A stretch of 26,529 nt of DNA, taken from the NCBI GenBank assembly GCA_964587845.1, contig CAZPNG010000154.1:1-26529 (forward strand), given 5' to 3'. The DNA comes from an uncultured bacterium (GTDB taxonomy: Bacteria > Omnitrophota > Omnitrophia > Omnitrophales > CAZPNG01). Below, in pieces: positions 1,532 through 26,146 of this stretch; the stretch's first letter is position 1, and each line of letters starts with the position of its first letter. The notes below the pieces were generated by a model that was not told where the DNA came from, did no database searches, and saw nothing but the letters and a program-made list of their open reading frames with translations. The position numbers were made by a program, and so were the translations under genes.

Positions 1532-2668
1532 GTGAGCGAAGTCGTTCGCCTCATCACACTCGCCGCATTCCGAAGGCTCAAACGAAGGCCAAACTTTCTT
1601 GGCTTCACGTTCAGCCCCGGCGAACGGCGCTACGCGCTCACCCGCCCACATCCGGATGAGCATCTGTCGGCCCGCTACGCCGCCAAGCTTGCGTTGCTCG
1701 AGCTGCTGGCCTGGGCGAAGCCGCCCGTGGCCCTGCGCGAGCTTGAAATTGCGCGAAAGCCGCATTCGCCGCCCGAGTTTCATCTAAGCGCCCGAGTTCG
1801 TCAGGCGCTCGGCCTCCCGCAGAAAGGCCCCCTGTGGCTCAGCTTGACGCACGAGCGCGACCGCGCGGCCGCGTATGTGGTTTTCCGGGCCGCTGAGCGG
1901 GTTCTCACCGTGACCGCCGATGACTTCAATCTTGCCCCGGGAGTCTCACGCGGCATTCTCGATGCGCACGAGCGGGGGATCGTCAGCAACACGTCTTTTT
2001 TGGTGAATTACCCGTTTCCAAGTGCTGTGCGCGCGCAACTGGCGCGTGCCAGGCGGCTGGCCGTCGGGCTGCACGTGAATCTCGTGCGCGGCAAGCCCGT
2101 GGCGGGGCGCTCGCGGGTGCGCGCGCTCCTCACCGCTGCCGGAGAGTTCACGCCCAGGCCCCTTGCGTTCTACAACACGGTGAGCCGCTCGGCACTGGAG
2201 TCCGAATGCCGGGCTCAGTTCAAGCGCTTCTCGAGCCTCTTGGGCGCGAAACCCCATCACTTGGACACGCACCACCACACCCACCGCCATCCGCGCGTGC
2301 TGGCGGTCGTGATGCAGCTTGCGCGCGAGCACGGCATTCCCGTGCGCCACACGGGGGAGGCAGGCCGGCATCACCCGTTGTTTTTAGCCGACCGCGTGTG
2401 GGGTTCACTCGACCGCGCGGGCATTTGGTCGCAGGCGTCGCTCGCGAAGAAGCTGCAAGCGTTGCCGAAGGGCGTCACGGAGGTGGCGTGCCATCCCGGC
2501 CGGGTAGACCGCCTGCTCGCCACCCGCAGCAGCTTTCTCGGCGAACGGGAGAAGGAAACGGCCGTGTTTTGCGCTCCCGGGCTGCGGCGCCTGCTCGCGC
2601 GCGAGAGAATCTGGCTCGCCTCGAGCCGAACCTTGGGGAGTCTTCGTGAACATTCTGCTGACGAATGA
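1532..2668 (+). CDS. Fusion of a degenerate AcpS-like (phosphopantetheinyl transferase) domain and a YdjC/ChbG-family carbohydrate deacetylase
   Basis: Residues ~20-118 (FTFSPGERRY..EHLSARYAAKLA..LEIARK..P.F.L..LSLTHE..AAAYV) follow the AcpS pattern. Residues ~124-378 carry YdjC motifs TADDFNL, TSFLVN, VGLHVNL, ECRAQF, HLDTHHHTH and EVACHPG. Confidence 0.8.
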   Translation: MSEVVRLITLAAFRRLKRRPNFLGFTFSPGERRYALTRPHPDEHLSARYAAKLALLELLAWAKPPVALRELEIARKPHSPPEFHLSARVRQALGLPQKGPLWLSLTHERDRAAAYVVFRAAERVLTVTADDFNLAPGVSRGILDAHERGIVSNTSFLVNYPFPSAVRAQLARARRLAVGLHVNLVRGKPVAGRSRVRALLTAAGEFTPRPLAFYNTVSRSALESECRAQFKRFSSLLGAKPHHLDTHHHTHRHPRVLAVVMQLAREHGIPVRHTGEAGRHHPLFLADRVWGSLDRAGIWSQASLAKKLQALPKGVTEVACHPGRVDRLLATRSSFLGEREKETAVFCAPGLRRLLARERIWLASSRTLGSLREHSADE

Positions 2669-3431
2669 CGATGGCATCGACGCGCCGGGTCTGGTGGCGC
2701 TCGAGACCCACCTGGCCGCGCGGCACGCCGTCGCGACCGTGGCTCCCCGTTTCCATGTCTCGGGATCCGGCCACAGCATCTCGCTTTCCAAGCCCATGCG
2801 GGTGGAGCGGCGCAAGCGGGGGAGTGTCGAGCTTTGCTCGATCGAGGGCACGCCGGCGGACTGCGTCAAGTTCGCGCTGTTCGGCCTGGGACTGAAACCC
2901 GACGTGGTCTTGTCAGGATTCAACCTTGGCGCCAACACGGGCGTGAGCGTGCATTACTCGGGCACGGTTTCTGCGGCGCGTGAGGCCTTGATTGCCGGAA
3001 CGCCTGCGATCGCCCTCTCGGTCGCGTCGCGCGAGGTTCATGACTTTGCCGGGCCGTGCCGGGTGGTGGACGTCCTCCTGGCTCATGAAGCTTTGTGGCG
3101 GGACCCCCTAGCCACCATGCTCAACGTCAACATTCCGCCCGTGGCCCTTGGCGAGATCAAGGGGATCCGGGTCACCCAGCAAGCGCGCTCGCGGTTTGCG
3201 GAGAACTTTCAGTGGCAGGGCTCCGGAGAGGATGAAACGGTGCTTCTGACAGGCGAGATTCTCTTGATCGAGGACAATGCGCATGCCGACGAGGAGGCCG
3301 TGCGTTCGGGCTACGTGTCGGTGACGCCGCTTGGGCTCGATCTGACGGATTACAAGCGCTGGGAAAGTCTAAAGGCGCGCGAGGGGGACTTGGATAGCCG
3401 TGACTGGCAGGGGAGGAAGCCTAGTGGGTGA
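2646..3431 (+). CDS. surE: 5'/3'-nucleotidase SurE
   Basis: NILLTNDDGIDAPGL, SGSGHSIS, GTPADCVK, SGFNLGANTG..YSGTVSAAREA, GYVSVTPL. GTG start overlaps the end of the upstream gene. Confidence 0.97.
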   Translation: MNILLTNDDGIDAPGLVALETHLAARHAVATVAPRFHVSGSGHSISLSKPMRVERRKRGSVELCSIEGTPADCVKFALFGLGLKPDVVLSGFNLGANTGVSVHYSGTVSAAREALIAGTPAIALSVASREVHDFAGPCRVVDVLLAHEALWRDPLATMLNVNIPPVALGEIKGIRVTQQARSRFAENFQWQGSGEDETVLLTGEILLIEDNAHADEEAVRSGYVSVTPLGLDLTDYKRWESLKAREGDLDSRDWQGRKPSG

Positions 3432-3612
3432 GCGAGCTGTCGAGGGTTTCGAAAATGATGGTGACAAGGTTGTTGCACTTGGGGCACTTGATTTGTTTGA
3501 AGGCCTGGATGTTCTCGTGCTTGGGCCGGTACATGATGCTCAGCACGCGCGTGACAAAGCGCGATTCATCGCCGGTCCATTCGCACGAAGAGCATGTGTA
3601 CAACGGTTTCAC
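3421..3612 (-). CDS. Small zinc-ribbon protein (63 aa), function unknown
   Basis: GTG at 3612 is preceded on the minus strand by AGGAAG. The protein MKPLYTCSSC..KQIKCPKCNNLV has two CxxC pairs. Its stop overlaps the surE end convergently. The ORF track uses a TTG at 3633. Confidence 0.65.
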   Translation of the reverse strand: MKPLYTCSSCEWTGDESRFVTRVLSIMYRPKHENIQAFKQIKCPKCNNLVTIIFETLDSSLTH

Positions 3613-3686
3613 GCTATTCTTCCTTTCCCTCAAGCGGCCCCGTGTTAGGAACCTATCGGCCTCGGAAGGCCTAACTTTAACCCGCC

Positions 3687-3714
3687 TTGGCAGGACTCTT
3701 GCTCCTTCTAAAGT
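3687..3714 (+). promoter_or_regulatory. Possible sigma70 promoter for the tandem secreted-protein pair
   Basis: TTGGCA (3687-3692), 16-nt spacer, TAAAGT (3709-3714). Imperfect match to consensus. Confidence 0.3.
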
Positions 3715-3818
3715 CTACTTGATCCCTGGCCTCAATCCTAGGGGGTTCCTGCCGATACATTAATGGGCAGGCTCCGTATGCCTTTTCGCGTAGGGACTGC
3801 CACAGAAAGGAGGTTGTT

Positions 3819-4139
3819 ATGAAAAAGTTGATGGTGCTGGCAATCGTAGCCATGATGGTGTTGAACCTGGCGCCCGGGGCGTACGCCTTGGGAGAGCTGA
3901 ATCCCGACATGACGAAAGTCTTCACTCGGGGATTCAAAAACGCCCTGACCTTTTGGGTGGAGGTGCCCAAGACCCTCTACCATGAAGGCAAGGCGGAGCC
4001 GGGGAAGGGCCACCTTCGGGGCGTTTTTCTCGGCCCCATGAAGGCCTTCGAGCGTGCCTTGAGCGGTGTCTGGGATATGGCGACCTCGCCATGCAGCCAG
4101 GCTGACAGGCTGGCCGTCGATCCTGAAACGTTGATTTAG
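3819..4139 (+). CDS. Secreted small protein, resembles the TIGR04073 (exosortase-system-associated) family; paralogue 1
   Basis: Strong SD AAAGGAGG. Signal peptide MKKLMVLAIVAMMVLNLAPGAYA. Pattern RGFKNALTFWVEVPK..G..LGP..A.ER.LSGVWDMATSP..DPETL recalls that family. The family match is from memory, not a search. Confidence 0.7.
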   Translation: MKKLMVLAIVAMMVLNLAPGAYALGELNPDMTKVFTRGFKNALTFWVEVPKTLYHEGKAEPGKGHLRGVFLGPMKAFERALSGVWDMATSPCSQADRLAVDPETLI

Positions 4140-4187
4140 CGGTAGCGAACTGCTTGGTTTGGCGAGACTCAGAAAGGAGCGTGTAGG

Positions 4188-4532
4188 GTGAGACGCAGAA
4201 GAGAAATTTTGGTTGTGGGGTCAGCCGCCCTGCTCATCGTTGCGTTGGCGTGCCCGGCGTTTGCGGGCGACTACTTCACGAACATGGCCAACGCTTGGAC
4301 GCGAGGCGTGACCAATGTCGCCACCTGTCCCCTGGAAATCTTCAAGACGCTGGACAAGTATCACTCCGGCGAATTGGGCGTCAAGATCAAAGGGGTGAGC
4401 TGCATTCAGGGCTTGGTTCACGGCACGGGCAAGGCGGCTATCCGCGCTGCGAACGGCGCGTGGGATATCGTGGCGGGTCTCATCCCCGGTCACCAGGACG
4501 GGATACCGCTCGATCCGGAAACCCTGGTTTAA
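4188..4532 (+). CDS. Secreted small protein, TIGR04073-like; paralogue 2
   Basis: SD AAAGGAG 8 nt before GTG. Signal peptide ends AFA. RGVTNVATCPLEIFK..GLVHGTGKAAIRAANGAWDIVAG..PLDPETLV is homologous to the upstream gene, and both end DPETL[IV]*. Confidence 0.7.
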   Translation: MRRRREILVVGSAALLIVALACPAFAGDYFTNMANAWTRGVTNVATCPLEIFKTLDKYHSGELGVKIKGVSCIQGLVHGTGKAAIRAANGAWDIVAGLIPGHQDGIPLDPETLV

Positions 4533-10204: not shown

Positions 10205-11029
10205 ATGTACAGAGATTTCTTCGGTTTCTCCGAGTATCCGTTCAACATCACCCCCGACCCGAAATTCTTCTATCCCACGGCGCAGCATGAGGATGCCCTC
10301 TCGAGCTTGATGTACGGCATCGAGTACCGCAAGGGCTTTCTGGTGTTGACCGGCGAGATCGGCAGCGGCAAGACCACGCTCCCGCGCTCGCTCCTGGAGC
10401 GCACTCGCGAGTCGGTCACCAGTTCCCTGGTCCTGAATCCGTTGCTCTCCGACGGGCAGCTTCTCGAGGCGGTGGTGGACGATTTCGGGATTCAGTTCAC
10501 GCGGGCCAAGACCCGCAAGCGCTGCTTCGACGCCCTCAACCACTTCCTGATTGAGGAAAACCAGAGGGGCCGCACGTGCGTGCTCATCATCGATGAAGCG
10601 CAGAATCTCAAGCCCAAGACCCTGGAAGCCGTCCGCCTGCTCTCGAACCTTGAGACCGTGAAGGAGAAACTGCTGCAGATTCTGCTGGTCGGCCAGCCCG
10701 AGCTCGAGGCGCTGCTCAACCTTCCTTCCCTTGCGCAATTCAGGCAGCGTATCACCGTGCGCTGCCATCTGAAGGGCTTGACGGAACAGGAGGTTGGGGA
10801 CTACCTCGAGTACCGCCTGCGCGTGGCGGGCGCGCCGCACAAGGTGCAGTTCGGGCAGTTTGCCGTCCACGAGGCCTACGAGTTCTCCAAGGGCATTCCG
10901 CGGCTCATCAATCTTTTCGCCGACAAGTGCCTCCTGGCGGCCTTCGTCAAGGGCACGCAGCGGATCGGCCCCGAGGTCACTGAGGAAGCCCGCGCCGAAC
11001 TCGGCTCTTTCGCGCTGGCGCCCGCCTAA
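10205..11029 (+). CDS. ExeA/GspA-type AAA+ ATPase without a peptidoglycan-binding C-terminus
   Basis: MYRDFFGFSEYPFNITPDPKFFY, Walker A GEIGSGKTT, Walker B IIDEAQNL, LVGQPEL, QRITVRCHL, GIPRLINL. Confidence 0.9.
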   Translation: MYRDFFGFSEYPFNITPDPKFFYPTAQHEDALSSLMYGIEYRKGFLVLTGEIGSGKTTLPRSLLERTRESVTSSLVLNPLLSDGQLLEAVVDDFGIQFTRAKTRKRCFDALNHFLIEENQRGRTCVLIIDEAQNLKPKTLEAVRLLSNLETVKEKLLQILLVGQPELEALLNLPSLAQFRQRITVRCHLKGLTEQEVGDYLEYRLRVAGAPHKVQFGQFAVHEAYEFSKGIPRLINLFADKCLLAAFVKGTQRIGPEVTEEARAELGSFALAPA

Positions 11030-11038
11030 GAAGGACCC

Positions 11039-11617
11039 ATGAGTCTGATTAACGAAGCCCTCAAGAAACTCAACAGCGAGAAACCGAAGGCCCCCGGGGC
11101 CGCTCTACTCCCGGCCGAGGCGCCACAGGCGGCCTTTGAGGCGTGGCGCCGGGTTTCTCCGCCTCGCGCCGTGCGCCGGCGGCCTTTGCGAGGGTGGCTT
11201 CTCATCGGGGCGCTCGCGCTCATCGCGGGCGGCGCCCTGTTGGGCCTGCAGGGGACAGGCGCGCGAGTGATTTTGTTTGCAGGGCCGGCGGCTTTCACGG
11301 CCACCTTCAATGAGGTGTTGCCGCCGGGAGGCCTCGATCCCGCCGCCACAGCCGTGCTTCCTCAGGGACAGATGAAACTTTGGGGTCAGGTGCCTGCCGG
11401 TGTTTTCGCGAAGTCGAAAAGCGTGGAAACCCGCCCCGCCCCATCCGCCTTCCGATTGAGCGGAACGGTGGCCGGAACGCAGACGCGCGCGGCGCTTGTC
11501 AACGACCGATGGGTGGAGGTCGGCGACTCGATTGACGGGGCGCGCGTGCAGGAGATTCTCGCGGGCGAAGTGGTTTTGAACCGCCAGGGGCGCGAGATCC
11601 GCCTTGAGGTGGCGTAA
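11039..11617 (+). CDS. ExeB/GspB-like single-pass membrane protein
   Basis: N-terminal MSLINEALKK, a TM segment (WLLIGALALIAGGALLGL) and the C-terminal domain FRLSGTV..AALVNDRWVEVGDSIDGARVQEI..VVL. It lies directly after the ExeA-like ATPase. Confidence 0.7.
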   Translation: MSLINEALKKLNSEKPKAPGAALLPAEAPQAAFEAWRRVSPPRAVRRRPLRGWLLIGALALIAGGALLGLQGTGARVILFAGPAAFTATFNEVLPPGGLDPAATAVLPQGQMKLWGQVPAGVFAKSKSVETRPAPSAFRLSGTVAGTQTRAALVNDRWVEVGDSIDGARVQEILAGEVVLNRQGREIRLEVA

Positions 11618-11790: not shown

Positions 11791-14274
11791 GTGTCGCGGC
11801 GTTTTCCATTTCTTCATTTTTTCCTCTTCCTGACGGCGGGAATCCTCATCCAGCCCGTTGCTTTCCGGTCCTGGCCGGGTGTTGGAATCTGTGCGGCCGG
11901 GGCCGGGCTTTGCGCAACGGCCGTCCTGGCCTGCGAGCTGCTACCCGGTCTTCTCAAGGTGAGAGCGAACGCGTGGTGGCGCGCCCGCGGGTTCGCGGCC
12001 CTTTTGGGTTTTGCGATTTTTTTCTCCGGGGTCGTTTCGAGCTACTGCTTTTTTTCCGAGACGGCGGGCTGCGCGCTATCAGTCGGTCCCGCCGAGATCG
12101 AGGGCGACATTGCGGGGCCGGTGGAGGTCGTTCGCCGCGGCCGGCAGCGCCGTGTCGCCTTTGAGCTGGAAACGCTTGCCGGGGGGCCGGCGCCCCCACC
12201 TCCGGTCTCTCGACCTTCGGGGACTTGCCAGCCGACCCGCTTTCAGCGGGTGCCCCGGCTGCCGGCGCGAGCGCGCGTGCAATGCTTTCTCGTCAACCCA
12301 CCGGGGTCTCTGCGCTCCGCGGACCGCGTTCGCCTGGCCGGGCGCCTGGAGGATCCGCCCGGCGCGCGCAATCCGGGCGAGTTTGATTACGCGGCGTTCC
12401 TGCGCTCGCAAGGAATTCGATATGTGTTCCGGGGAGTCGGGACCCGGAGCGTGCTGGGAGGGGTGCGCCGCCGGCCGGCCTCGCTCGCCGCCTGGTTTTA
12501 CCGAATGCGGGGAATGCTCTCCACCCGTCTGGCGCGCGCCATGCGCCCTCCGGAGGGGGACCTGGTAGCCGCCCTCTGCCTCGGCGAGCGGCGCGGCCTG
12601 TCACCGGAACTCACGGCCGATTTCGTGCGCACGGGCCTCGTGCACGTGATCGCCGTGAGCGGTTTCAACGTGTGGCTCCTCGCCGGCGGCCTATGGGGCG
12701 CGCTCAAGCTTTGCGCCGTCCCGCCCCGCATGGCCGTGGCGGCCTGCCTGGCCACGGTGGGCGGATACGTGTTTTTGTCCGGCGCGCCCGTGACCGTGGT
12801 GCGGGCGGCGTGGATGGCCGCCGGCGCGTTTCTCGCGGTTCTCCTGCGGGAGCCGGCCGCGTCGCTCAATTTCCTGTTTTTTGCAAGCTTTCTCATTTTG
12901 TTCGCCGACCCCGGCGCCCTGGCCTTGCCGTCGTTTCAACTTTCCTTTGCCTCTTCGCTCGCGCTGCTCACGCTGGCGCCCCGTCTAGACATGGGCTCCG
13001 GCAGCGGACGGCCGCGAAGCCGCAAGCGCGCGGCGAGAAGCTGGAGAGCCGCGCGCTGGCTCGCCCGGCAAGTTTTCTCCTCCCTCAGTGTGAGCGCAGC
13101 CGTCTTGATCGGCGCGGGGCCCGTGAGCGCCTGGCACTTCCATGCGCTCTCGCTCGTGTCCGTTTTGGCCAACCTCCTCGTGCTGCCGTTGTTTGTGCTG
13201 GCCATGTGGTGCGCGCTGCCCGGCCTTGTGAGTTTGGTGGCCTGGCCGCCGGCGGCATCCGTGTTTCTCGAGGGCGCCCGGGTGCTTCTCGGCGGCGCTG
13301 TGGCGTTGAACGGTTATCTGGCACGGCTGCCCGGGTTCTTTCCGGTGCCGAAGGCCGCGTGGGGGTGGCTGGCGCTCGGATGCGCTTTCCTCGGGGCCTA
13401 TGCTCTGGCGGGCCGGGCGGGGGCCCTCCGGGCCCTTTGGCCCGTAGGGCCGGGGGCAGGCAGGATTTCCCGGCTGCCTCGCCCTGCCTATCTCGCCGGG
13501 GCGGCGCTCGCCGTACTCGGGGGGCTTGTTTTCTCGGCCGCCGCTCGCGAGCAACCCTTCTCGTTCACGGTCCTCGCTGCGCGGCAAGGATTTGTCGCCC
13601 TGGCTCGCATGCCGGGCCGGGCCCCCGTGTTGTTCAACACGGGCGGCGGCCGGTCGGGCCGCGGCGTCTTTTGGCTCACGCTTCCCTATTTGCGCTCCCA
13701 GGGCGTTCGGCGCTTGAGCGGCTTGGTCTTGCATTCCCTTTCTGCCGCCGACGCGGGCGGCCTTGCGGTGCTGGGCCGGCAGGTAGAGGTGGGTAGGGTC
13801 TTCGTGCCTGCGAAGGACGCAAAACGCGCGGCCGCCGTGGACCCTTCCGTCGGACGGAGGATGAGCGTTTATCGCCTCCGCGAGTCGCTGCAGCTTGAAC
13901 CCGGGACAGGAGTCGCGCAGCGCGTAGCGCCTTTTGCATGGATGTTCTCCGGCCGGTCCGTCAGGATCGCTGTGCTCATGTCTGCTCGAGCTTCCGGCGC
14001 CCTCGGCCTGCGAAATCAAGGGGGCTGTTTCGATGCGGTCGTCTTGGCTGCCGGCTCAAGCGGCGAACGCAAGGGTCCGTGGGCGTCCTACGCGAAGCGG
14101 TGCCCCGAAACGGTCATGGTCACCGCCGACAAGAAGGGGGATGGCGGCTTTCTTCGAGGGCTCGGGTTAAGGAGTTTCGCGACATCGGCGTGCGGTATGG
14201 TTCGGCTCATCGAGTCGCCGGCCGGGCAGGTTGCGGTCGAAACCTTTCTCCCCTGTTCCTCGCTGCACGTTTGA
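11791..14274 (+). CDS. comEC: ComEC/Rec2 DNA-uptake membrane protein with a degenerate beta-lactamase-fold C-terminus and a 25-aa insert
   Basis: SD AGGAGG before GTG. N-terminal TMs, OB-fold region (LAGRLEDPPGARNPGEFDYAAFLRSQGI), competence domain (ALCLGER..TGLVHVIAVSGFNV..VVRAAWM..PSFQLSF) and a C-terminal MBL-like region. Confidence 0.9.
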   Translation: MSRRFPFLHFFLFLTAGILIQPVAFRSWPGVGICAAGAGLCATAVLACELLPGLLKVRANAWWRARGFAALLGFAIFFSGVVSSYCFFSETAGCALSVGPAEIEGDIAGPVEVVRRGRQRRVAFELETLAGGPAPPPPVSRPSGTCQPTRFQRVPRLPARARVQCFLVNPPGSLRSADRVRLAGRLEDPPGARNPGEFDYAAFLRSQGIRYVFRGVGTRSVLGGVRRRPASLAAWFYRMRGMLSTRLARAMRPPEGDLVAALCLGERRGLSPELTADFVRTGLVHVIAVSGFNVWLLAGGLWGALKLCAVPPRMAVAACLATVGGYVFLSGAPVTVVRAAWMAAGAFLAVLLREPAASLNFLFFASFLILFADPGALALPSFQLSFASSLALLTLAPRLDMGSGSGRPRSRKRAARSWRAARWLARQVFSSLSVSAAVLIGAGPVSAWHFHALSLVSVLANLLVLPLFVLAMWCALPGLVSLVAWPPAASVFLEGARVLLGGAVALNGYLARLPGFFPVPKAAWGWLALGCAFLGAYALAGRAGALRALWPVGPGAGRISRLPRPAYLAGAALAVLGGLVFSAAAREQPFSFTVLAARQGFVALARMPGRAPVLFNTGGGRSGRGVFWLTLPYLRSQGVRRLSGLVLHSLSAADAGGLAVLGRQVEVGRVFVPAKDAKRAAAVDPSVGRRMSVYRLRESLQLEPGTGVAQRVAPFAWMFSGRSVRIAVLMSARASGALGLRNQGGCFDAVVLAAGSSGERKGPWASYAKRCPETVMVTADKKGDGGFLRGLGLRSFATSACGMVRLIESPAGQVAVETFLPCSSLHV
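12188..12268 (-). mobile_element. 75-bp palindromic element plus 6-bp direct repeat, in-frame within comEC (copy 1)
   Basis: CGGCGC at 12188-12193 and 12263-12268, exactly 75 nt apart. 12188-12269 is the reverse complement of 21265-21346 at 81/82 positions. It encodes [23 protein letters not shown] within ComEC. Confidence 0.85.
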
Positions 14275-14300
14275 CAGGGGGGGAGGCCCTGTGCTATCAT
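14271..14300 (+). promoter_or_regulatory. sigma70 promoter for the bamD-like/lptE/holA unit
   Basis: TTGACA (14271-14276), 18-nt spacer, TGc extended -10, TATCAT (14295-14300). It overlaps the comEC stop codon. Confidence 0.7.
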
Positions 14301-14365: not shown

Positions 14366-17300
14366 ATGAAGCGTCCCATCCTGTGGGGTTTCGCTGTGCT
14401 GTGCCTGCTCCTCGCGGCGGTTCTGTCTGCCGAGGCTTATGCGTTCTGGATCTGGTCCCCCGAAACCAAAACTTTCGTGAATCCCGAGGGAACCGTGCAG
14501 GACACGGCGGAGGAGCAGTTCACCTACGCCATGAAGCTCTATTCCAATGGGGAGACGGGTGAGGCCGTCAAGGAATTGTCGAAGCTTCTCAAAGAGTATC
14601 CCACCTCCACGACCGCGCCCAAGGCGCAATTCCAGCTTGCGGTCCTGCACGAAGATGCCGGCTCGCCGTACAAAGCTTTTGAAGCGCACCGGGACTTGTG
14701 GCGCACGTATCCCCAAAGCGATCAGTTGGACGAGTCGCTGAAGCGCGCTTTCCAGATCGGCAATGTGTTTCTCTCCGGCAAGAAAGGCAAGGTGCTCGGC
14801 TTGGCGGTGGTGCCGGTCCTGCCGCGCGCGGAGGAAGTGTTCTCGGAAATCGGGACCTGGGCGCCTTACTCGGAGTGGGGTGACCGGGCCCAGTTCTCCT
14901 TGGGGCTAGCGCGCAAGCAAATGGCGAAGTACCAGGAAGCCATCCAGGCCTTCCAGGACCTCGTCGACCGATACCCCAGAAGCGAGTTCGTCCCGGACGC
15001 GCGCTATCAGATGGCGGAGTGCACCCTGCTTTACAGCGCGCAGGGGGAGCGCGACGACCGCGTCTTCCAGCAAGCCCAGAGCCGCTTCGACACGTTCCTC
15101 AAGCAGTACCCTGGAAGCTCCTCCTTCGAGAAAGCGCAGGCGCTCAAGCGCGAGGTCGAAGAGCGCAAGGCGGAGAAGGATTTTCTCATCGGCAAGTACT
15201 ACGAAGATCGTCATTACCTAGACAGCGCGCGCATTTATTACGAGGGCGTGGCGGCCGAGTACGCGGACACCGCGTGGGGCAAGCGAGCGGCCGAGCGGCT
15301 CGAGAAGCTGAAATCTCCGGAGAAGTTTTGGCGGGACCGCGAGGAAGTGCTGGCGAAGGACCTTGCCTCCCTCGAGCAGAAGGAGCGCGCGCTGGCCCAG
15401 CGCGAGCGCGACGTGACCGGCCAGCCGATCCAGGGCCGCGAGCGGGAGCTCCTGAACGCCGAGAAAAAGAGCATCGTGCAGGACGAGCAGGCCCTGCGCC
15501 GCAAGCTCCAGAAGTTCAAGACGACCAAGGTGCAAGAGTTTCGCAGCCGCCAGAAGGCGCTGGACCGGGAGGGGCAGGCGCTCAGGGAGAAGCACAAGAC
15601 CCTCAAGCAAAAGGCCAAACTTCTCAAGCGTAACCCTTCTCCCGACTTGAACCGCGCCATCGAGCGCTGGCAGGATTCGCTGGCGGCCGAAGAGTTGTCG
15701 CTTGCGCGCCGGCGCGGCGAGCTTGAAAACCTGCGCCGCGCGTGGGGCGTTGGGCCGAACCTTCAAGAGATCGTCGGGGGGTGGGTGAGCGGCCGGCCGA
15801 GCCCCGAGCGGCGGGTCGAAAAGCTGCTGCAGTACAGAGCGCACGATCTGGCCTCGATCGGCAAGAAGCGCCATCGCATCCGGGTGGCGAAGCGCTCCCT
15901 GTACCGCGAGCGGGAAACCCTGGAGCATGCCCAGCGCGCAATCGATCTCGAGCTCATCAACCTTGTTCTGGACAAGAAGGAGTTCCGCCACGCTTTGGCG
16001 CGCGGCCCTTCGGGCCTCGAGCGAAAGCGGCTGGCTCTGGAGGAGGAAGAGAGGCGTCTCGCCTTTCTGGAAGAGCGTCTCGCGGTCCGCCGCCACATGC
16101 TCGGGTTAGAGGCCGGAGCCCTGCGCTTTCCCGCCGAGCGGGGAGTGAGGTTGGAAGCTTTGATCCGCGAGCGCGAACTCCGCCGCCGTCATCTGGCGCG
16201 GGCCGTGCGCGCCAAGCGCGCCGAGATTCAGTCGACCCACAATGCCTTCGAGATGGCGTTCGAGTCATTGCCTGCACAGGTCCTGCCCGTGATCACGGCC
16301 GACAGTCCGCAGCGCGATTCCCGCCAGGCGCGCAAAGCCTTGAAGGACCTCGAGCGGCGCGTGCGCCAGGGCATCGACGAAATCCGTGACCGCAAGAGGG
16401 CCAAGCAGAAGAGAATTGCCGACCTGGCCGAGGTGTTGCGCGAAGCCCGCCGGGAGAGGCGGCCCAGGATCCTGGAAGCCGGGCACAAGATCGCCCGGCC
16501 CGGCTTCGTGTTCTTGGAGTTAACGAAGGCCTTTTTCGTGGGTGTTGAGGAGGAAGAGACGCGCGTCGATCAGCAAGCCCGCCGGGACACGCGGCACGTG
16601 ACGGAGGAATGGCGGGGCCAGATTCAGGCCCTGCGCGAAGCCATTGCCTTGGAGAATGTGATGATCGCCGCGCGCGCGTTTGAAGTGCGCACGGCCGAGA
16701 ATGAGCTGCTCAAATTGCGCGCCGAGACGATGGGGAATCGGCCAACGGAAGTCCGAAGTATCCTGCCGGCCACGCCTCGGGGGTTCGTGAACCAGGCGCA
16801 CAGCCAGGCCGCTTTGCATATGTCGACCGATGCTGAGAAGGGGGTCTTGATCGACCGGCTCGACCGGGAAACGCGCACCTTGGCCGAACTGGAGCGAGAG
16901 TTGCGCAATGTGAACATGGACCTTGCGGCTGCGCGCGCCCAGCGCCTGCGTCGAGCGCGGCCCCAGGCGGAGCCGCCCGGTGCCCCCGCTCCGGCAGCGC
17001 CGCGCGTCGCCCCTGCCGAGCGGCGCGCTCGGGCAGGGCATTCTCTGGCGCGTTTTGAACGCGTTTTTGCGGCCAAGCGCGCGCGTTTCGAGCGCGCACG
17101 CCTGGGGCTGGAGCGCGAGCTGGCTCAAGTTTACCGGACTTCTCCGGATGCGTCTTTGCGCGAGTCTATCCGCGTTGAGGAGCGGAAGCTCTTTAGCAAG
17201 TTGGACCGCCTGCGCGATCACGAGCGCGAGACCTCGCAGTCCATCCTCAAACTGCTTGATGAGGAGCAAGCGCTTTTGGGCCGGGAGCGCGAGCTCGTGG

Positions 17301-17497
17301 CCCAAAAGATCGACCGCTTCGAGCAATCCATGTCGCAGCGGTCCGTCGCGGATTCGGCCGCGAGCAGCTGGCGCTCCCGCGTGAGCGGAGAGCGCGAGCG
17401 GCTTGCGACGCGCCTCACCTCCCTGGACCGGGCCTCAGGCCTTGCCCAACGGGAGAGGCGCCAGATGTTGGAAGCGCGAGGAGACGTGGCGCGGTGA
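14366..17497 (+). CDS. BamD-like TPR protein (aa ~27-315) with a ~730-aa predicted coiled-coil C-terminal extension
   Basis: Signal peptide ends AEAYA. TPR helices (EEQFTYAMKLY..LLKEYPTS..APKAQF; AIQAFQDLVDRYPRSEFVPDARY; FLKQYPGS; KAEKDFLIGKYY..SARIYY..AWGKRAAERL) follow the BamD layout. The rest is E/R/L/A/K-rich and helical. The gene is immediately upstream of lptE. Confidence 0.7.
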   Translation: MKRPILWGFAVLCLLLAAVLSAEAYAFWIWSPETKTFVNPEGTVQDTAEEQFTYAMKLYSNGETGEAVKELSKLLKEYPTSTTAPKAQFQLAVLHEDAGSPYKAFEAHRDLWRTYPQSDQLDESLKRAFQIGNVFLSGKKGKVLGLAVVPVLPRAEEVFSEIGTWAPYSEWGDRAQFSLGLARKQMAKYQEAIQAFQDLVDRYPRSEFVPDARYQMAECTLLYSAQGERDDRVFQQAQSRFDTFLKQYPGSSSFEKAQALKREVEERKAEKDFLIGKYYEDRHYLDSARIYYEGVAAEYADTAWGKRAAERLEKLKSPEKFWRDREEVLAKDLASLEQKERALAQRERDVTGQPIQGRERELLNAEKKSIVQDEQALRRKLQKFKTTKVQEFRSRQKALDREGQALREKHKTLKQKAKLLKRNPSPDLNRAIERWQDSLAAEELSLARRRGELENLRRAWGVGPNLQEIVGGWVSGRPSPERRVEKLLQYRAHDLASIGKKRHRIRVAKRSLYRERETLEHAQRAIDLELINLVLDKKEFRHALARGPSGLERKRLALEEEERRLAFLEERLAVRRHMLGLEAGALRFPAERGVRLEALIRERELRRRHLARAVRAKRAEIQSTHNAFEMAFESLPAQVLPVITADSPQRDSRQARKALKDLERRVRQGIDEIRDRKRAKQKRIADLAEVLREARRERRPRILEAGHKIARPGFVFLELTKAFFVGVEEEETRVDQQARRDTRHVTEEWRGQIQALREAIALENVMIAARAFEVRTAENELLKLRAETMGNRPTEVRSILPATPRGFVNQAHSQAALHMSTDAEKGVLIDRLDRETRTLAELERELRNVNMDLAAARAQRLRRARPQAEPPGAPAPAAPRVAPAERRARAGHSLARFERVFAAKRARFERARLGLERELAQVYRTSPDASLRESIRVEERKLFSKLDRLRDHERETSQSILKLLDEEQALLGRERELVAQKIDRFEQSMSQRSVADSAASSWRSRVSGERERLATRLTSLDRASGLAQRERRQMLEARGDVAR

Positions 17498-18018
17498 ACG
17501 GTCGTCGGCTCCTGGCCCTGGGGGTTCTGAGCCTCGCCGGCCTCCTTGCCGGCTGCGGCTACACCAACAAGACGACCTTGCCGAGGGAAATCCGGACGAT
17601 CGTGGTTCCAACCTTTGAAGACCGCATTCCCCAGGAGGTGGAGTTCACCCATCAAGCCGGCCTGCCCGTCGATGTCACGAATGCCGTGATCGACCGGCTG
17701 CTCTTCGACGGCAACCTTCGGGTGGTGGATGAGAAGGACGCGGACGTGACGCTCGTGGGCAAGATCATCCGTTTTGACCAGGAACCCACGCGCTTCAACG
17801 AGCAGGAACGCGTGGAAGAGTACCGCCTCATCATCACCGCGCGCGTCACCCTTTTGGACAACCGCACCCAGAAACCGCTGTGGATTGAGCCGAACCTCAG
17901 CGGCGACATCGAGTTTTTCCTTGAAGGCTCGCGGGCCATGGGCCAGAGGCGCGCCGTGGAGGATGCCATCAAGGAAATCGCGCGCAACATCGTGGACCGC
18001 ATCGTCGAGGATTGGTGA
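17494..18018 (+). CDS. lptE: LPS assembly lipoprotein LptE
   Basis: Lipobox LAGC then GY, IRTIVVPTF, ADVTLVGKI, EEYRLIITARVTL, AIKEIARNIVDRIVEDW. It precedes holA, as in the conserved lptE-holA arrangement. GTGA overlap with the upstream stop. Confidence 0.85.
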   Translation: MNGRRLLALGVLSLAGLLAGCGYTNKTTLPREIRTIVVPTFEDRIPQEVEFTHQAGLPVDVTNAVIDRLLFDGNLRVVDEKDADVTLVGKIIRFDQEPTRFNEQERVEEYRLIITARVTLLDNRTQKPLWIEPNLSGDIEFFLEGSRAMGQRRAVEDAIKEIARNIVDRIVEDW

Positions 18019-18024
18019 GGGTGG

Positions 18025-18987
18025 GTGGAACGGCCGGTTCTTCTTGTCCTGGGCGTTCGGCACAAGCGGCAGGCGGCGGCCCAGGAAGCTCTCGCCACTT
18101 GGGACAAGCACCTCGCCGCCCGGCCTGAAGCGTGGGTTCGCCTCCTCGCTGACCCCGGTTGCGCGGCCCGCATCCTCGAGCAGGCGCGCACCTACCCGCT
18201 GGGCGCCGAGCGGCAGCTCGTTTGGGTGGAGGAGGCCGACCGCCTTCACGCCGCCGACCAAGCGCACCTCACGACCTACCTTGAGCATCCCGCCCCTTTC
18301 AGCATGATCGTGCTGGCCGCCGATTCCTGGGACCGCCGCACGGCGTTCTATAAAGCCATAGCCGCCAAGAAATGGGTGCTTTCCTGCGAAGAAGAAGGAA
18401 CAGGCTCGAGCGCTCAGGAGTTTGACCGGTGGGCGCGAGCGCGAGCCATTCGCCTGGAGGAAGGTGCTCGCCGCTACCTGGCCGGCCAGCTCGAGCTTTC
18501 CCCCGATCTTCTCCCCGACCTCCAAGCCCGCCTGGAACTCTTCGCGGAGCCGGGCCAGGCGCTCCAGGAGGCGGCGGCGAGAGCGCTGGCTCCGGAAACG
18601 GTGGCGACCGACGCCTTCGCTCTTTTGGATGACTTTTTTTCAGGCAGGCCCGCCGAGGGCGTCAAGCGGTTGCGCTCGCTCTCGCGGCGCTCGGAGGAGT
18701 GGACAGAGCTGGTAGGAGCCATCCACTGGTCGGCGCGGCGCATGTGGATCGCCGCGCGCCTTCACGCCCACGTTTCTCCGGTTGGCCTGGCTCGCGAGCT
18801 GGGCGTTTCCCCCTCCCGGGCTCGCGAGCTGGCCGAGCGCGCTCAAAGGCTGGGGCGCGGGAAAATTGAGCGGCTGATTGAAGAGCTCTCGGAGATCGAC
18901 GCGGCGTTTAAAGTGAGCAGCCCGAACGCGGCCGAGCGGCTGGAGTTCCTGTTGATGTCGTTGAGCGTTACGCCAAAAGGCGCATGA
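18025..18987 (+). CDS. holA: DNA polymerase III delta subunit (divergent)
   Basis: ILEQARTYPLGAERQLVWVEEAD, YLEHPAPFSMIVL, DRRTAFYKAI, DAFALLDDF, LSEIDAAFK..LEFLL. Syntenic between lptE and rpsT. Confidence 0.8.
   Translation: MERPVLLVLGVRHKRQAAAQEALATWDKHLAARPEAWVRLLADPGCAARILEQARTYPLGAERQLVWVEEADRLHAADQAHLTTYLEHPAPFSMIVLAADSWDRRTAFYKAIAAKKWVLSCEEEGTGSSAQEFDRWARARAIRLEEGARRYLAGQLELSPDLLPDLQARLELFAEPGQALQEAAARALAPETVATDAFALLDDFFSGRPAEGVKRLRSLSRRSEEWTELVGAIHWSARRMWIAARLHAHVSPVGLARELGVSPSRARELAERAQRLGRGKIERLIEELSEIDAAFKVSSPNAAERLEFLLMSLSVTPKGA

Positions 18988-23569: not shown

Positions 23570-26146
<2,577 letters not shown>

Follow-up and report, generated by a model that had tools for sequence, protein, structure and literature searches.

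In a 26,529-nt stretch of DNA from an uncultured bacterium of the phylum Omnitrophota (hereafter the window; GenBank assembly GCA_964587845.1, contig CAZPNG010000154.1, positions 1 to 26,529 of the forward strand), the gene bamD encodes a protein of 1043 aa in which the domain of the outer membrane protein (OMP) assembly factor BamD is followed by a 728-residue helical arm. The open reading frame (ORF) starts with ATG and runs uninterrupted from 14366 to 17497 on the forward strand. We are highly confident that the head is BamD and that the extension is real and conserved. BamD is the most widely conserved lipoprotein of the β-barrel assembly machinery (BAM), and its lipid anchor is usually taken as part of its definition; the protein described here most likely lacks this anchor, as judged from its signal peptide. 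The BamD label of such proteins is already known from GenBank, and what is new is the long form of Omnitrophota, predicted to be anchorless and carrying the arm. The protein is divided as follows.

14366..14443, forward strand: signal peptide, aa 1–26 (MKRPILWGFAVLCLLLAAVLSAEAYA), of signal peptidase I (SPase I) type, without lipobox; 19-residue Kyte–Doolittle mean 2.34, and alignment of relatives
14444..14482, forward strand: aromatic N-terminal motif FWIWSPETKTFVN; W28, W30, S31, P32 and F37 invariant in 29 long forms
14483..15310, forward strand: BamD tetratricopeptide repeat (TPR) domain, aa 40–315, recognized by TIGR03302, PF13525, the AlphaFold2 (AF2) model and Foldseek
15311..17494, forward strand: C-terminal helical arm, aa 316–1043 (728 aa), ~18 helices, no transmembrane (TM) segment

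The BamD head and its N-terminus

The head was assigned to BamD by sequence models and by predicted structure. It scored 112.5 bits against the NCBIfam model of the BamD subfamily, TIGR03302 (cut-off 81.4), and 53.6 bits against PF13525 (YfiO; cut-off 25), and both matches stop at aa 308–314. Against the E. coli-type equivalog NF008119 it reached 18 bits (cut-off 363), which places the protein in the BamD subfamily but outside the enterobacterial equivalog. The best sequence match of the head in the Protein Data Bank (PDB) was Rhodothermus marinus BamD (phmmer, 4.7e-12). In an AF2 model built with 29 homologues, the predicted local distance difference test (pLDDT) exceeded 90 for aa ~50–315, and the BamD helices end at aa 315, the same position at which the short-form orthologues terminate. 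Foldseek matched the head model to BamD structures (3qky, E 3e-7; E. coli BamD 7nri_D, TMt 0.77 with a root-mean-square deviation of 2.6 Å over 191 columns; 8qp5_D, TMt 0.72), so that the AF2 head has the five-TPR BamD fold. The first-pass annotation had described a BamD-like region ending near aa 315, and the models, the predicted helices and the short orthologues all agree with it. GenBank pipelines name the relatives of 960–1048 aa 'outer membrane protein assembly factor BamD [Candidatus Omnitrophota bacterium]'. The protein departs from the textbook description, a single domain of ~240–300 aa lipidated at a lipobox with Cys+1, in having 1043 aa, 728 of them beyond the head, and in having no lipobox.

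The N-terminus reads MKRPILWGFAVLCLLLAAVLSAEAYA-FWIWSP, where the hyphen marks the cleavage site set by alignment to relatives (ASA-DWVWSP, AHA-YWVWSP); the assignment to SPase I is based on the −3/−1 rule together with this alignment. The sole cysteine, Cys13, is not conserved; it falls in the h-region, where its surroundings (AVLC) do not form a lipobox. The N-terminus is readable in 34 relatives. In 33 of these, no lipobox is present and the signal peptide closes on an A-x-A-like site; the exception, locus L115, was assigned a doubtful TTG start, and a signal peptide is visible further upstream in the same frame. The adjacent LptE, by contrast, has a signal peptide followed by ..(S/T/G/A)GC-GYT in nearly every genome of the set, which makes the absence of the lipobox specific to BamD. 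These observations bear out the earlier description of an SPase I-type signal without a lipobox cysteine, and they indicate that this BamD is most likely exported by the Sec pathway, cut by SPase I and not lipidated.

Directly after the signal peptide, all 34 relatives carry the motif [x]W[VI]W[ST]P. A strict regular expression found it in 114 of 175 family members, with variants in most of the others. AF2 draws the motif as a small β-hairpin, at low confidence (pLDDT ~50–57).

Conservation and structure of the arm

The long form was found repeatedly among Omnitrophota. A word-index search returned one relative of 1015 aa with 32% identity and identical ComEC-BamD-LptE-HolA-RpsT-MurJ-UvrC synteny. 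The head alone as query gave no match against genome contigs, and a two-sequence alignment was used instead; against the GTDB species genomes it yielded 37 loci, ~30 of them with ORFs of 958–1049 aa, almost all from Candidatus Omnitrophota. Searched exhaustively with HMMER, 1.84 billion cluster representatives yielded 3437 matches, including ~45 representatives (50% cluster level) of 950–1163 aa, most of which aligned over nearly the whole query; below these came forms of ~300–330 aa and intermediates. The long relatives share 26–34% identity and the same length and come from many independent assemblies. All named relatives in the long clade (~70 sequences of 950–1160 aa) belong to Candidatus Omnitrophota, and the comEC-bamD-lptE-holA order is kept in nearly all long-form loci.

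Extensions past the BamD domain are bimodal in length among 175 members, 76 being shorter than 100 aa and 69 falling at 600–780 aa. In a tree of the BamD domain (FastTree, midpoint root, one domain, 290 columns), a single branch with support 97 unites all 71 long forms. The long form is the rule in this clade; the seven sequences inside it that are not long appear truncated or frameshifted. This tree and these lengths indicate a single origin of the arm, within one clade of Omnitrophota, and a length maintained at 640–780 residues. Over 28 pairs of closer relatives, the ratio of non-synonymous to synonymous substitution rates (dN/dS) was 0.06 in the head and 0.08 in the arm; dS is high (~0.4–1.5), which makes both values approximate. 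By this measure, purifying selection on the arm is only slightly weaker than on the head.

An artefact, in which a normal BamD of ~315 aa was wrongly joined to a downstream gene by read-through, frameshift or misassembly, might be suspected from the 240–300 aa of canonical BamD and the 310–320 aa of some Omnitrophota forms. It is contradicted by the ~70 long sequences of equal length at 26–34% identity in independent assemblies, by the low dN/dS of the tail and by the absence of a free-standing tail gene in the short-BamD genomes, where lptE comes directly after bamD. In addition, contigs from two other public runs of two studies cross nt 15310 without differences (X1, 15159–15911; X3, 15055–15584; the source sample may be one of the two). 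The long ORF is genuine on this evidence, and we consider the chance of an artefact negligible. One long-form gene, in Omnitrophica RIFOXYB12_FULL_50_7 (locus L110, 1611–3785), halts after 724 aa, and ~570 nt (3786–4352) follow before the lptE frame opens; the probable cause is a frameshift, an error of assembly or decay of this copy.

By composition, the arm contains 17% R, 12% E, 12.5% A and 12% L; 38% of its residues are charged, and it is predicted to be almost wholly helical. Its net charge is +47 and its pI 10.9 in a genome of 64% G+C; the arms of relatives range from −40 to +24 in net charge and from 5.0 to 9.4 in pI, with 10–15% Lys where the window protein has 17% Arg. The Arg-richness is consistent with the G+C content of the genome and not with a functional change. 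A conserved basic charge, as in a Skp-like or membrane-binding rod, is ruled out by the range of net charge in the family, −40 to +47. The arm contains no TM segment, its highest 19-residue Kyte–Doolittle mean being 1.29, at IARPGFVFLELTKAFFVGV, and no internal repeats (hhalign between blocks, probability ≤7%).

AF2 was run on the full-length protein and separately on the arm, and both models show ~18 helices, the longest of ~62–65 residues. The helices break at ~347–357, 420–425 (a conserved NPSPD turn), 461–479, 580–591, 633–651, 707–712, 789–805, 865–883 (a Pro/Ala linker) and 992–996. Among 29 aligned long forms, 30 arm positions are invariant and ~60 nearly so, and the invariant positions are not periodic; the strongest amphipathic periodicity of the arm lies in helix 652–706. 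The conserved and variable parts of the arm are as follows.

15491..15745, forward strand: block A, aa 376–460, two long helices with the turn KLLKRNPSPDL...RW..SL; K416, K418, A431, R434, W435, S438, L439 and E442 invariant
15746..15802, forward strand: conserved non-helical loop, aa 461–479 (GVGPNLQEIVGGWVSGRPS), consensus ..LIPFxGxPETP; P475 and F476 nearly invariant; pLDDT <50
16166..16465, forward strand: block B, aa 601–700; R656, E663, R667, I673 and R676 invariant
16490..16546, forward strand: most hydrophobic spot of the arm, aa 709–727 (IARPGFVFLELTKAFFVGV), not TM; F723 and G726 invariant
16616..16915, forward strand: block C, aa 751–850, with ENVMIAAR; E763, I767, R797, P804, A811 and L832 invariant
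16955..17014, forward strand: variable Pro/Ala-rich linker, aa 864–883, poorly conserved and gapped in relatives; pLDDT <50
17066..17494, forward strand: C-terminal helical block D, aa 901–1043; E974, R1016 and E1030 invariant; pLDDT up to 93–96

The mean heptad score of the arm is 3.40, against 2.53 ± 0.115 for shuffled sequences, but scores beyond the 99th percentile are reached in just ~6% of windows, grouped in patches at aa 386–462, 611–697, 822–860, 888–917 and 964–991. The first-pass annotation had seen a charged, heptad-like helix in these 728 residues: the charge and the helicity hold, whereas heptads occur only in patches. The length of up to ~100 nm that it further suggested assumes a single unbroken helix, and a continuous coiled coil of this length is not supported. 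The ~18 helices, the conserved breaks between them and the patchy heptads point to a segmented, specifically structured arm.

Database searches placed the arm in no known group. Pfam gave no match even at E ≤5, NCBIfam (within the scan of the whole protein) gave only coiled-coil noise, and 29 tails searched against families likewise returned only coiled-coil noise (SHE3). The best hit of a sequence-profile search of the PDB was prefoldin β, below threshold at E 0.008, and a Foldseek search of the PDB found nothing at E ≤1e-3, its weak top matches being the arms of SMC and MukB (best E 0.0096, TM-score ~0.1). The arm forms a large protein family that matched no known fold or family in these searches.

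Sister lineages and a possible role for the arm

The non-lipidated head is present throughout the phylum, and the named short-form matches in the protein search were all from Omnitrophota. Short and intermediate forms share with the window protein this head, the aromatic N-terminal motif, the neighbouring lptE and the phylum; they differ in what follows the head, which is either nothing or a low-complexity or repetitive linker of variable length with other end modules. The short forms, such as L114–L116, have 310–320 aa. Three intermediates (P0070, P0073, P0089) carry Lys/Glu-rich helical C-terminal stretches, and five (P0060, P0075, P0080, P0081, P0083) have disordered linkers with short hydrophobic motifs (FLGLFPVGPDPN, GLWPFGKK, W-x-P-L-x-F). 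Other linkers end in a β-domain of ~100 aa, which matches AMIN in P0081 (22.8 bits, cut-off 20.5) and falls just under that cut-off in P0096 and P0109 (19.2–19.3 bits); the possible β-domain ends of P0068, P0069, P0072 and P0090 had no Pfam match. In-frame BamD::LptE fusions were also found, one by Pfam (P0085) and three by sequence (P0087, P0048 and L119, the last at 2580–4157). They consist of the head, a Lys-rich linker with hydrophobic motifs (KPFFSF, KPLLDFRKK) and the LptE domain, which has neither its own signal peptide nor the lipobox cysteine (..FSFFGYTTGS instead of ..SGC-GYT). In contrast to all these extensions, the arm of the window protein is structured, occurs in one clade only and combines great length with an absence of repeats.

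Lys-flanked hydrophobic motifs (FLGLFPVG, GLWPFGKK, W-x-P-L-x-F, FWEVWK) recur in 3–9 copies per tail in many intermediates (P0060, P0075, P0080, P0081, P0083, P0062, P0071). The loops of the long arm at aa 461–479 and 709–727 (consensus LIPFxGxP and AFIFGLPN) resemble these short motifs, a likeness that we record as a lead only.

The best explanation of the whole, to which we give about an even chance, is that this protein belongs to BAM without being lipidated and that its arm serves as a structured scaffold or tether in the periplasm. For the scaffold or tether role of the arm taken by itself, which the first-pass annotation had also proposed and to which the sister lineages lend indirect support, our confidence falls slightly short of even. 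The TPR head would dock on BamA, as in other BAM complexes, and would be held there by protein contacts, and perhaps by the aromatic N-terminal motif, in place of an acyl anchor. The arm may be a bundle or rod built in segments from long helices that conserved loops connect, and it may project into the periplasm, where these loops would bind a second envelope component. The likeliest partner would be the cell wall or the site of LptD/LptE assembly, as sister clades carry LptE or AMIN-like modules at the same C-terminus. OMP insertion could in this way be positioned relative to lipopolysaccharide (LPS) insertion and the sacculus. A bolder version, which we regard as doubtful, is that BAM and LptD/LptE form one physically coupled unit of outer membrane (OM) biogenesis in Omnitrophota, with the 728-residue arm as the coupler in this clade and with the aromatic hairpin and protein contacts replacing the acyl anchor. 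Were this true, the arm would achieve at a fixed distance, and without a covalent bond, what the BamD::LptE fusions or peptidoglycan-gripping AMIN ends do covalently, and would be a periplasmic ruler or scaffold of a kind undescribed for any BAM complex.

Several findings weigh against the scaffold reading. The global confidence of the AF2 models is low (predicted TM-score 0.34–0.40) and does not distinguish hairpin packing from a long rod. The AMIN and LptE fusions occur in sister clades with unrelated linkers and suggest a theme without proving the function of the arm, and the spread of net charge in the family means that an electrostatic mechanism is not conserved. Finally, the head is without the lipid anchor that defines canonical BamD, which could mean that it is a BamD-like paralogue, related to CpoB/YbgF or to another periplasmic TPR adaptor, with the true BamD encoded elsewhere in the genome. 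CpoB/YbgF is likewise a periplasmic, non-lipidated TPR protein with a coiled-coil segment and weak sequence similarity in the TPRs, and the head also matches the CpoB structure 6g5s and scores on two YbgF/CpoB models. These scores, however, stay under their cut-offs (TIGR02795, 63.9 against 90.1 bits; NF008068, 46.7 against 383 bits), whereas TIGR03302 passes its own, and the best structural matches are BamD chains. The domain order is also the reverse of that in CpoB, where a short N-terminal coiled coil precedes the TPRs; the neighbours are comEC, lptE and holA, not tol-pal; and named relatives, long or short, are all called BamD by the pipelines in metagenome-assembled genomes of Omnitrophota. 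CpoB/YbgF identity was rejected on these grounds, which settles the earlier question of whether the TPR region is that of BamD or of CpoB, and a paralogue of any such kind is improbable.

With BamD identity accepted, the arm could serve in ways other than as a scaffold or tether. As a device for homo-oligomerization, it would cluster BAM complexes into islands by parallel or antiparallel coiled-coil pairing, with no heterologous partner. Heptad-like patches beyond the shuffled expectation and the weak Foldseek likeness to SMC/MukB/cohesin arms and the prefoldin coiled coil are in keeping with this, but the patches cover few windows, the Foldseek matches are not significant, and many invariant residues sit in aromatic or proline-bearing non-helical loops, which suggests specific docking sites and not a plain zipper; we give this alternative a minor share of probability. 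A built-in chaperone, with Skp- or prefoldin-like tentacles passing unfolded OMPs to BamA, would suit the long amphipathic helices, the very basic, Skp-like arm of the window protein and the sole, sub-threshold PDB sequence match to prefoldin β. It is nonetheless unlikely, given that the basic charge is not conserved among relatives and that prefoldin and SHE3 matches are typical coiled-coil noise. An arm that served passively, as a spacer or entropic bristle with no specific interactions, would account for the high charge and the lack of a recognizable domain; the strong selection, the 30 invariant positions, the conserved length and the lack of repeats, set against sister-clade spacers that are repetitive and vary widely in length, make it highly improbable.

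Compared with canonical BamD (E. coli 3q5m/7nri_D, R. marinus 3qky, Neisseria 5waq, Flavobacterium johnsoniae 9n2d_F), the window protein shares the TPR fold and family and the export to the periplasm. It differs in its SPase I signal, in having no lipobox Cys, in the W-x-W-S-P at its mature N-terminus, in an arm that brings it to 3.5 times the normal length and in its bamD-lptE-holA context with overlapping stop and start. Phylum-specific remodelling of BAM is known from Bacteroidota, where lineage-specific essential additions include a BamG/BamH canopy (Liu et al. 2025, PMC12611786); those additions are separate subunits on the extracellular side, whereas the change seen here is a covalent periplasmic extension of BamD together with loss of the lipid anchor. 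TolA domain II and Lpp, like the arm, are highly charged long periplasmic helices, and SMC-type antiparallel coiled-coil arms are fold analogues; the arm has no TM anchor, no repeats and no significant match in sequence or fold, which leaves them as analogues only.

According to a 2024 review of OM lipoproteins (PMC11784454), BamD is an essential lipoprotein, the one essential BAM lipoprotein in E. coli, and lipoproteins re-engineered to be soluble can still function from multicopy plasmids. The literature searched yielded no account of a non-lipidated BamD bearing an arm of this kind, nor of BamD::LptE fusions. A phylum-wide BamD predicted to be anchorless beside an LptE that is still lipidated, with one clade carrying a strongly constrained helical arm of ~700 residues, bears on how far BAM requires lipoprotein anchoring, on the physical coupling of OMP and LPS insertion, and on how ultrasmall, possibly host-dependent bacteria arrange OM biogenesis with respect to their cell wall. 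In the sister lineages, the fusions of BamD to LptE and the AMIN-like ends offer testable material for these questions.

Gene neighbourhood

In the window, comEC lies upstream of bamD, and downstream follow lptE, holA, rpsT (on the opposite strand), murJ, uvrC, a gene for a peptide chain release factor with PCRF and RF-1 domains, and secA. The elements closest to bamD are as follows.

14271..14300, forward strand: sigma-70-like promoter, TTGACA-18-TGcTATCAT, extended −10, 11/12, a consensus match only
17494..18018, forward strand: lptE, 174 aa, lipobox LLAGC-GYT, start overlapping the bamD stop
18025..18987, forward strand: holA (DNA polymerase III δ), last gene in the conserved bamD-lptE-holA run

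The bamD stop codon TGA (17495–17497) overlaps the GTG start of lptE (17494–17496) in an exact GTGA, as the first-pass annotation had described, an arrangement that suggests translational coupling and co-expression. The lptE product matches PF04390 (63 bits) and has its own signal peptide and the lipobox LLAGC. The sigma-70-like site overlaps the comEC stop codon and lies 66 nt upstream of bamD, and no terminator-like sites were found by consensus matching on the forward strand between bamD, lptE and holA. This suggests that bamD-lptE-holA may be driven from its own promoter at 14271–14300.

The SecA encoded at 23570–26146 has its best match among 185,579 GTDB species genomes at 59% identity, with top matches scattered across many phyla, which indicates that the organism has no close sequenced relative among those genomes; its BamD relatives assign it to Omnitrophota. 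At 10205–11617, an ExeA-like AAA ATPase (PF13401) and a small protein with weak matches to C/B-like components of the type II secretion system lie between a GH35/GH42 glycosidase and comEC, within the usual leuS...lptE-holA neighbourhood.

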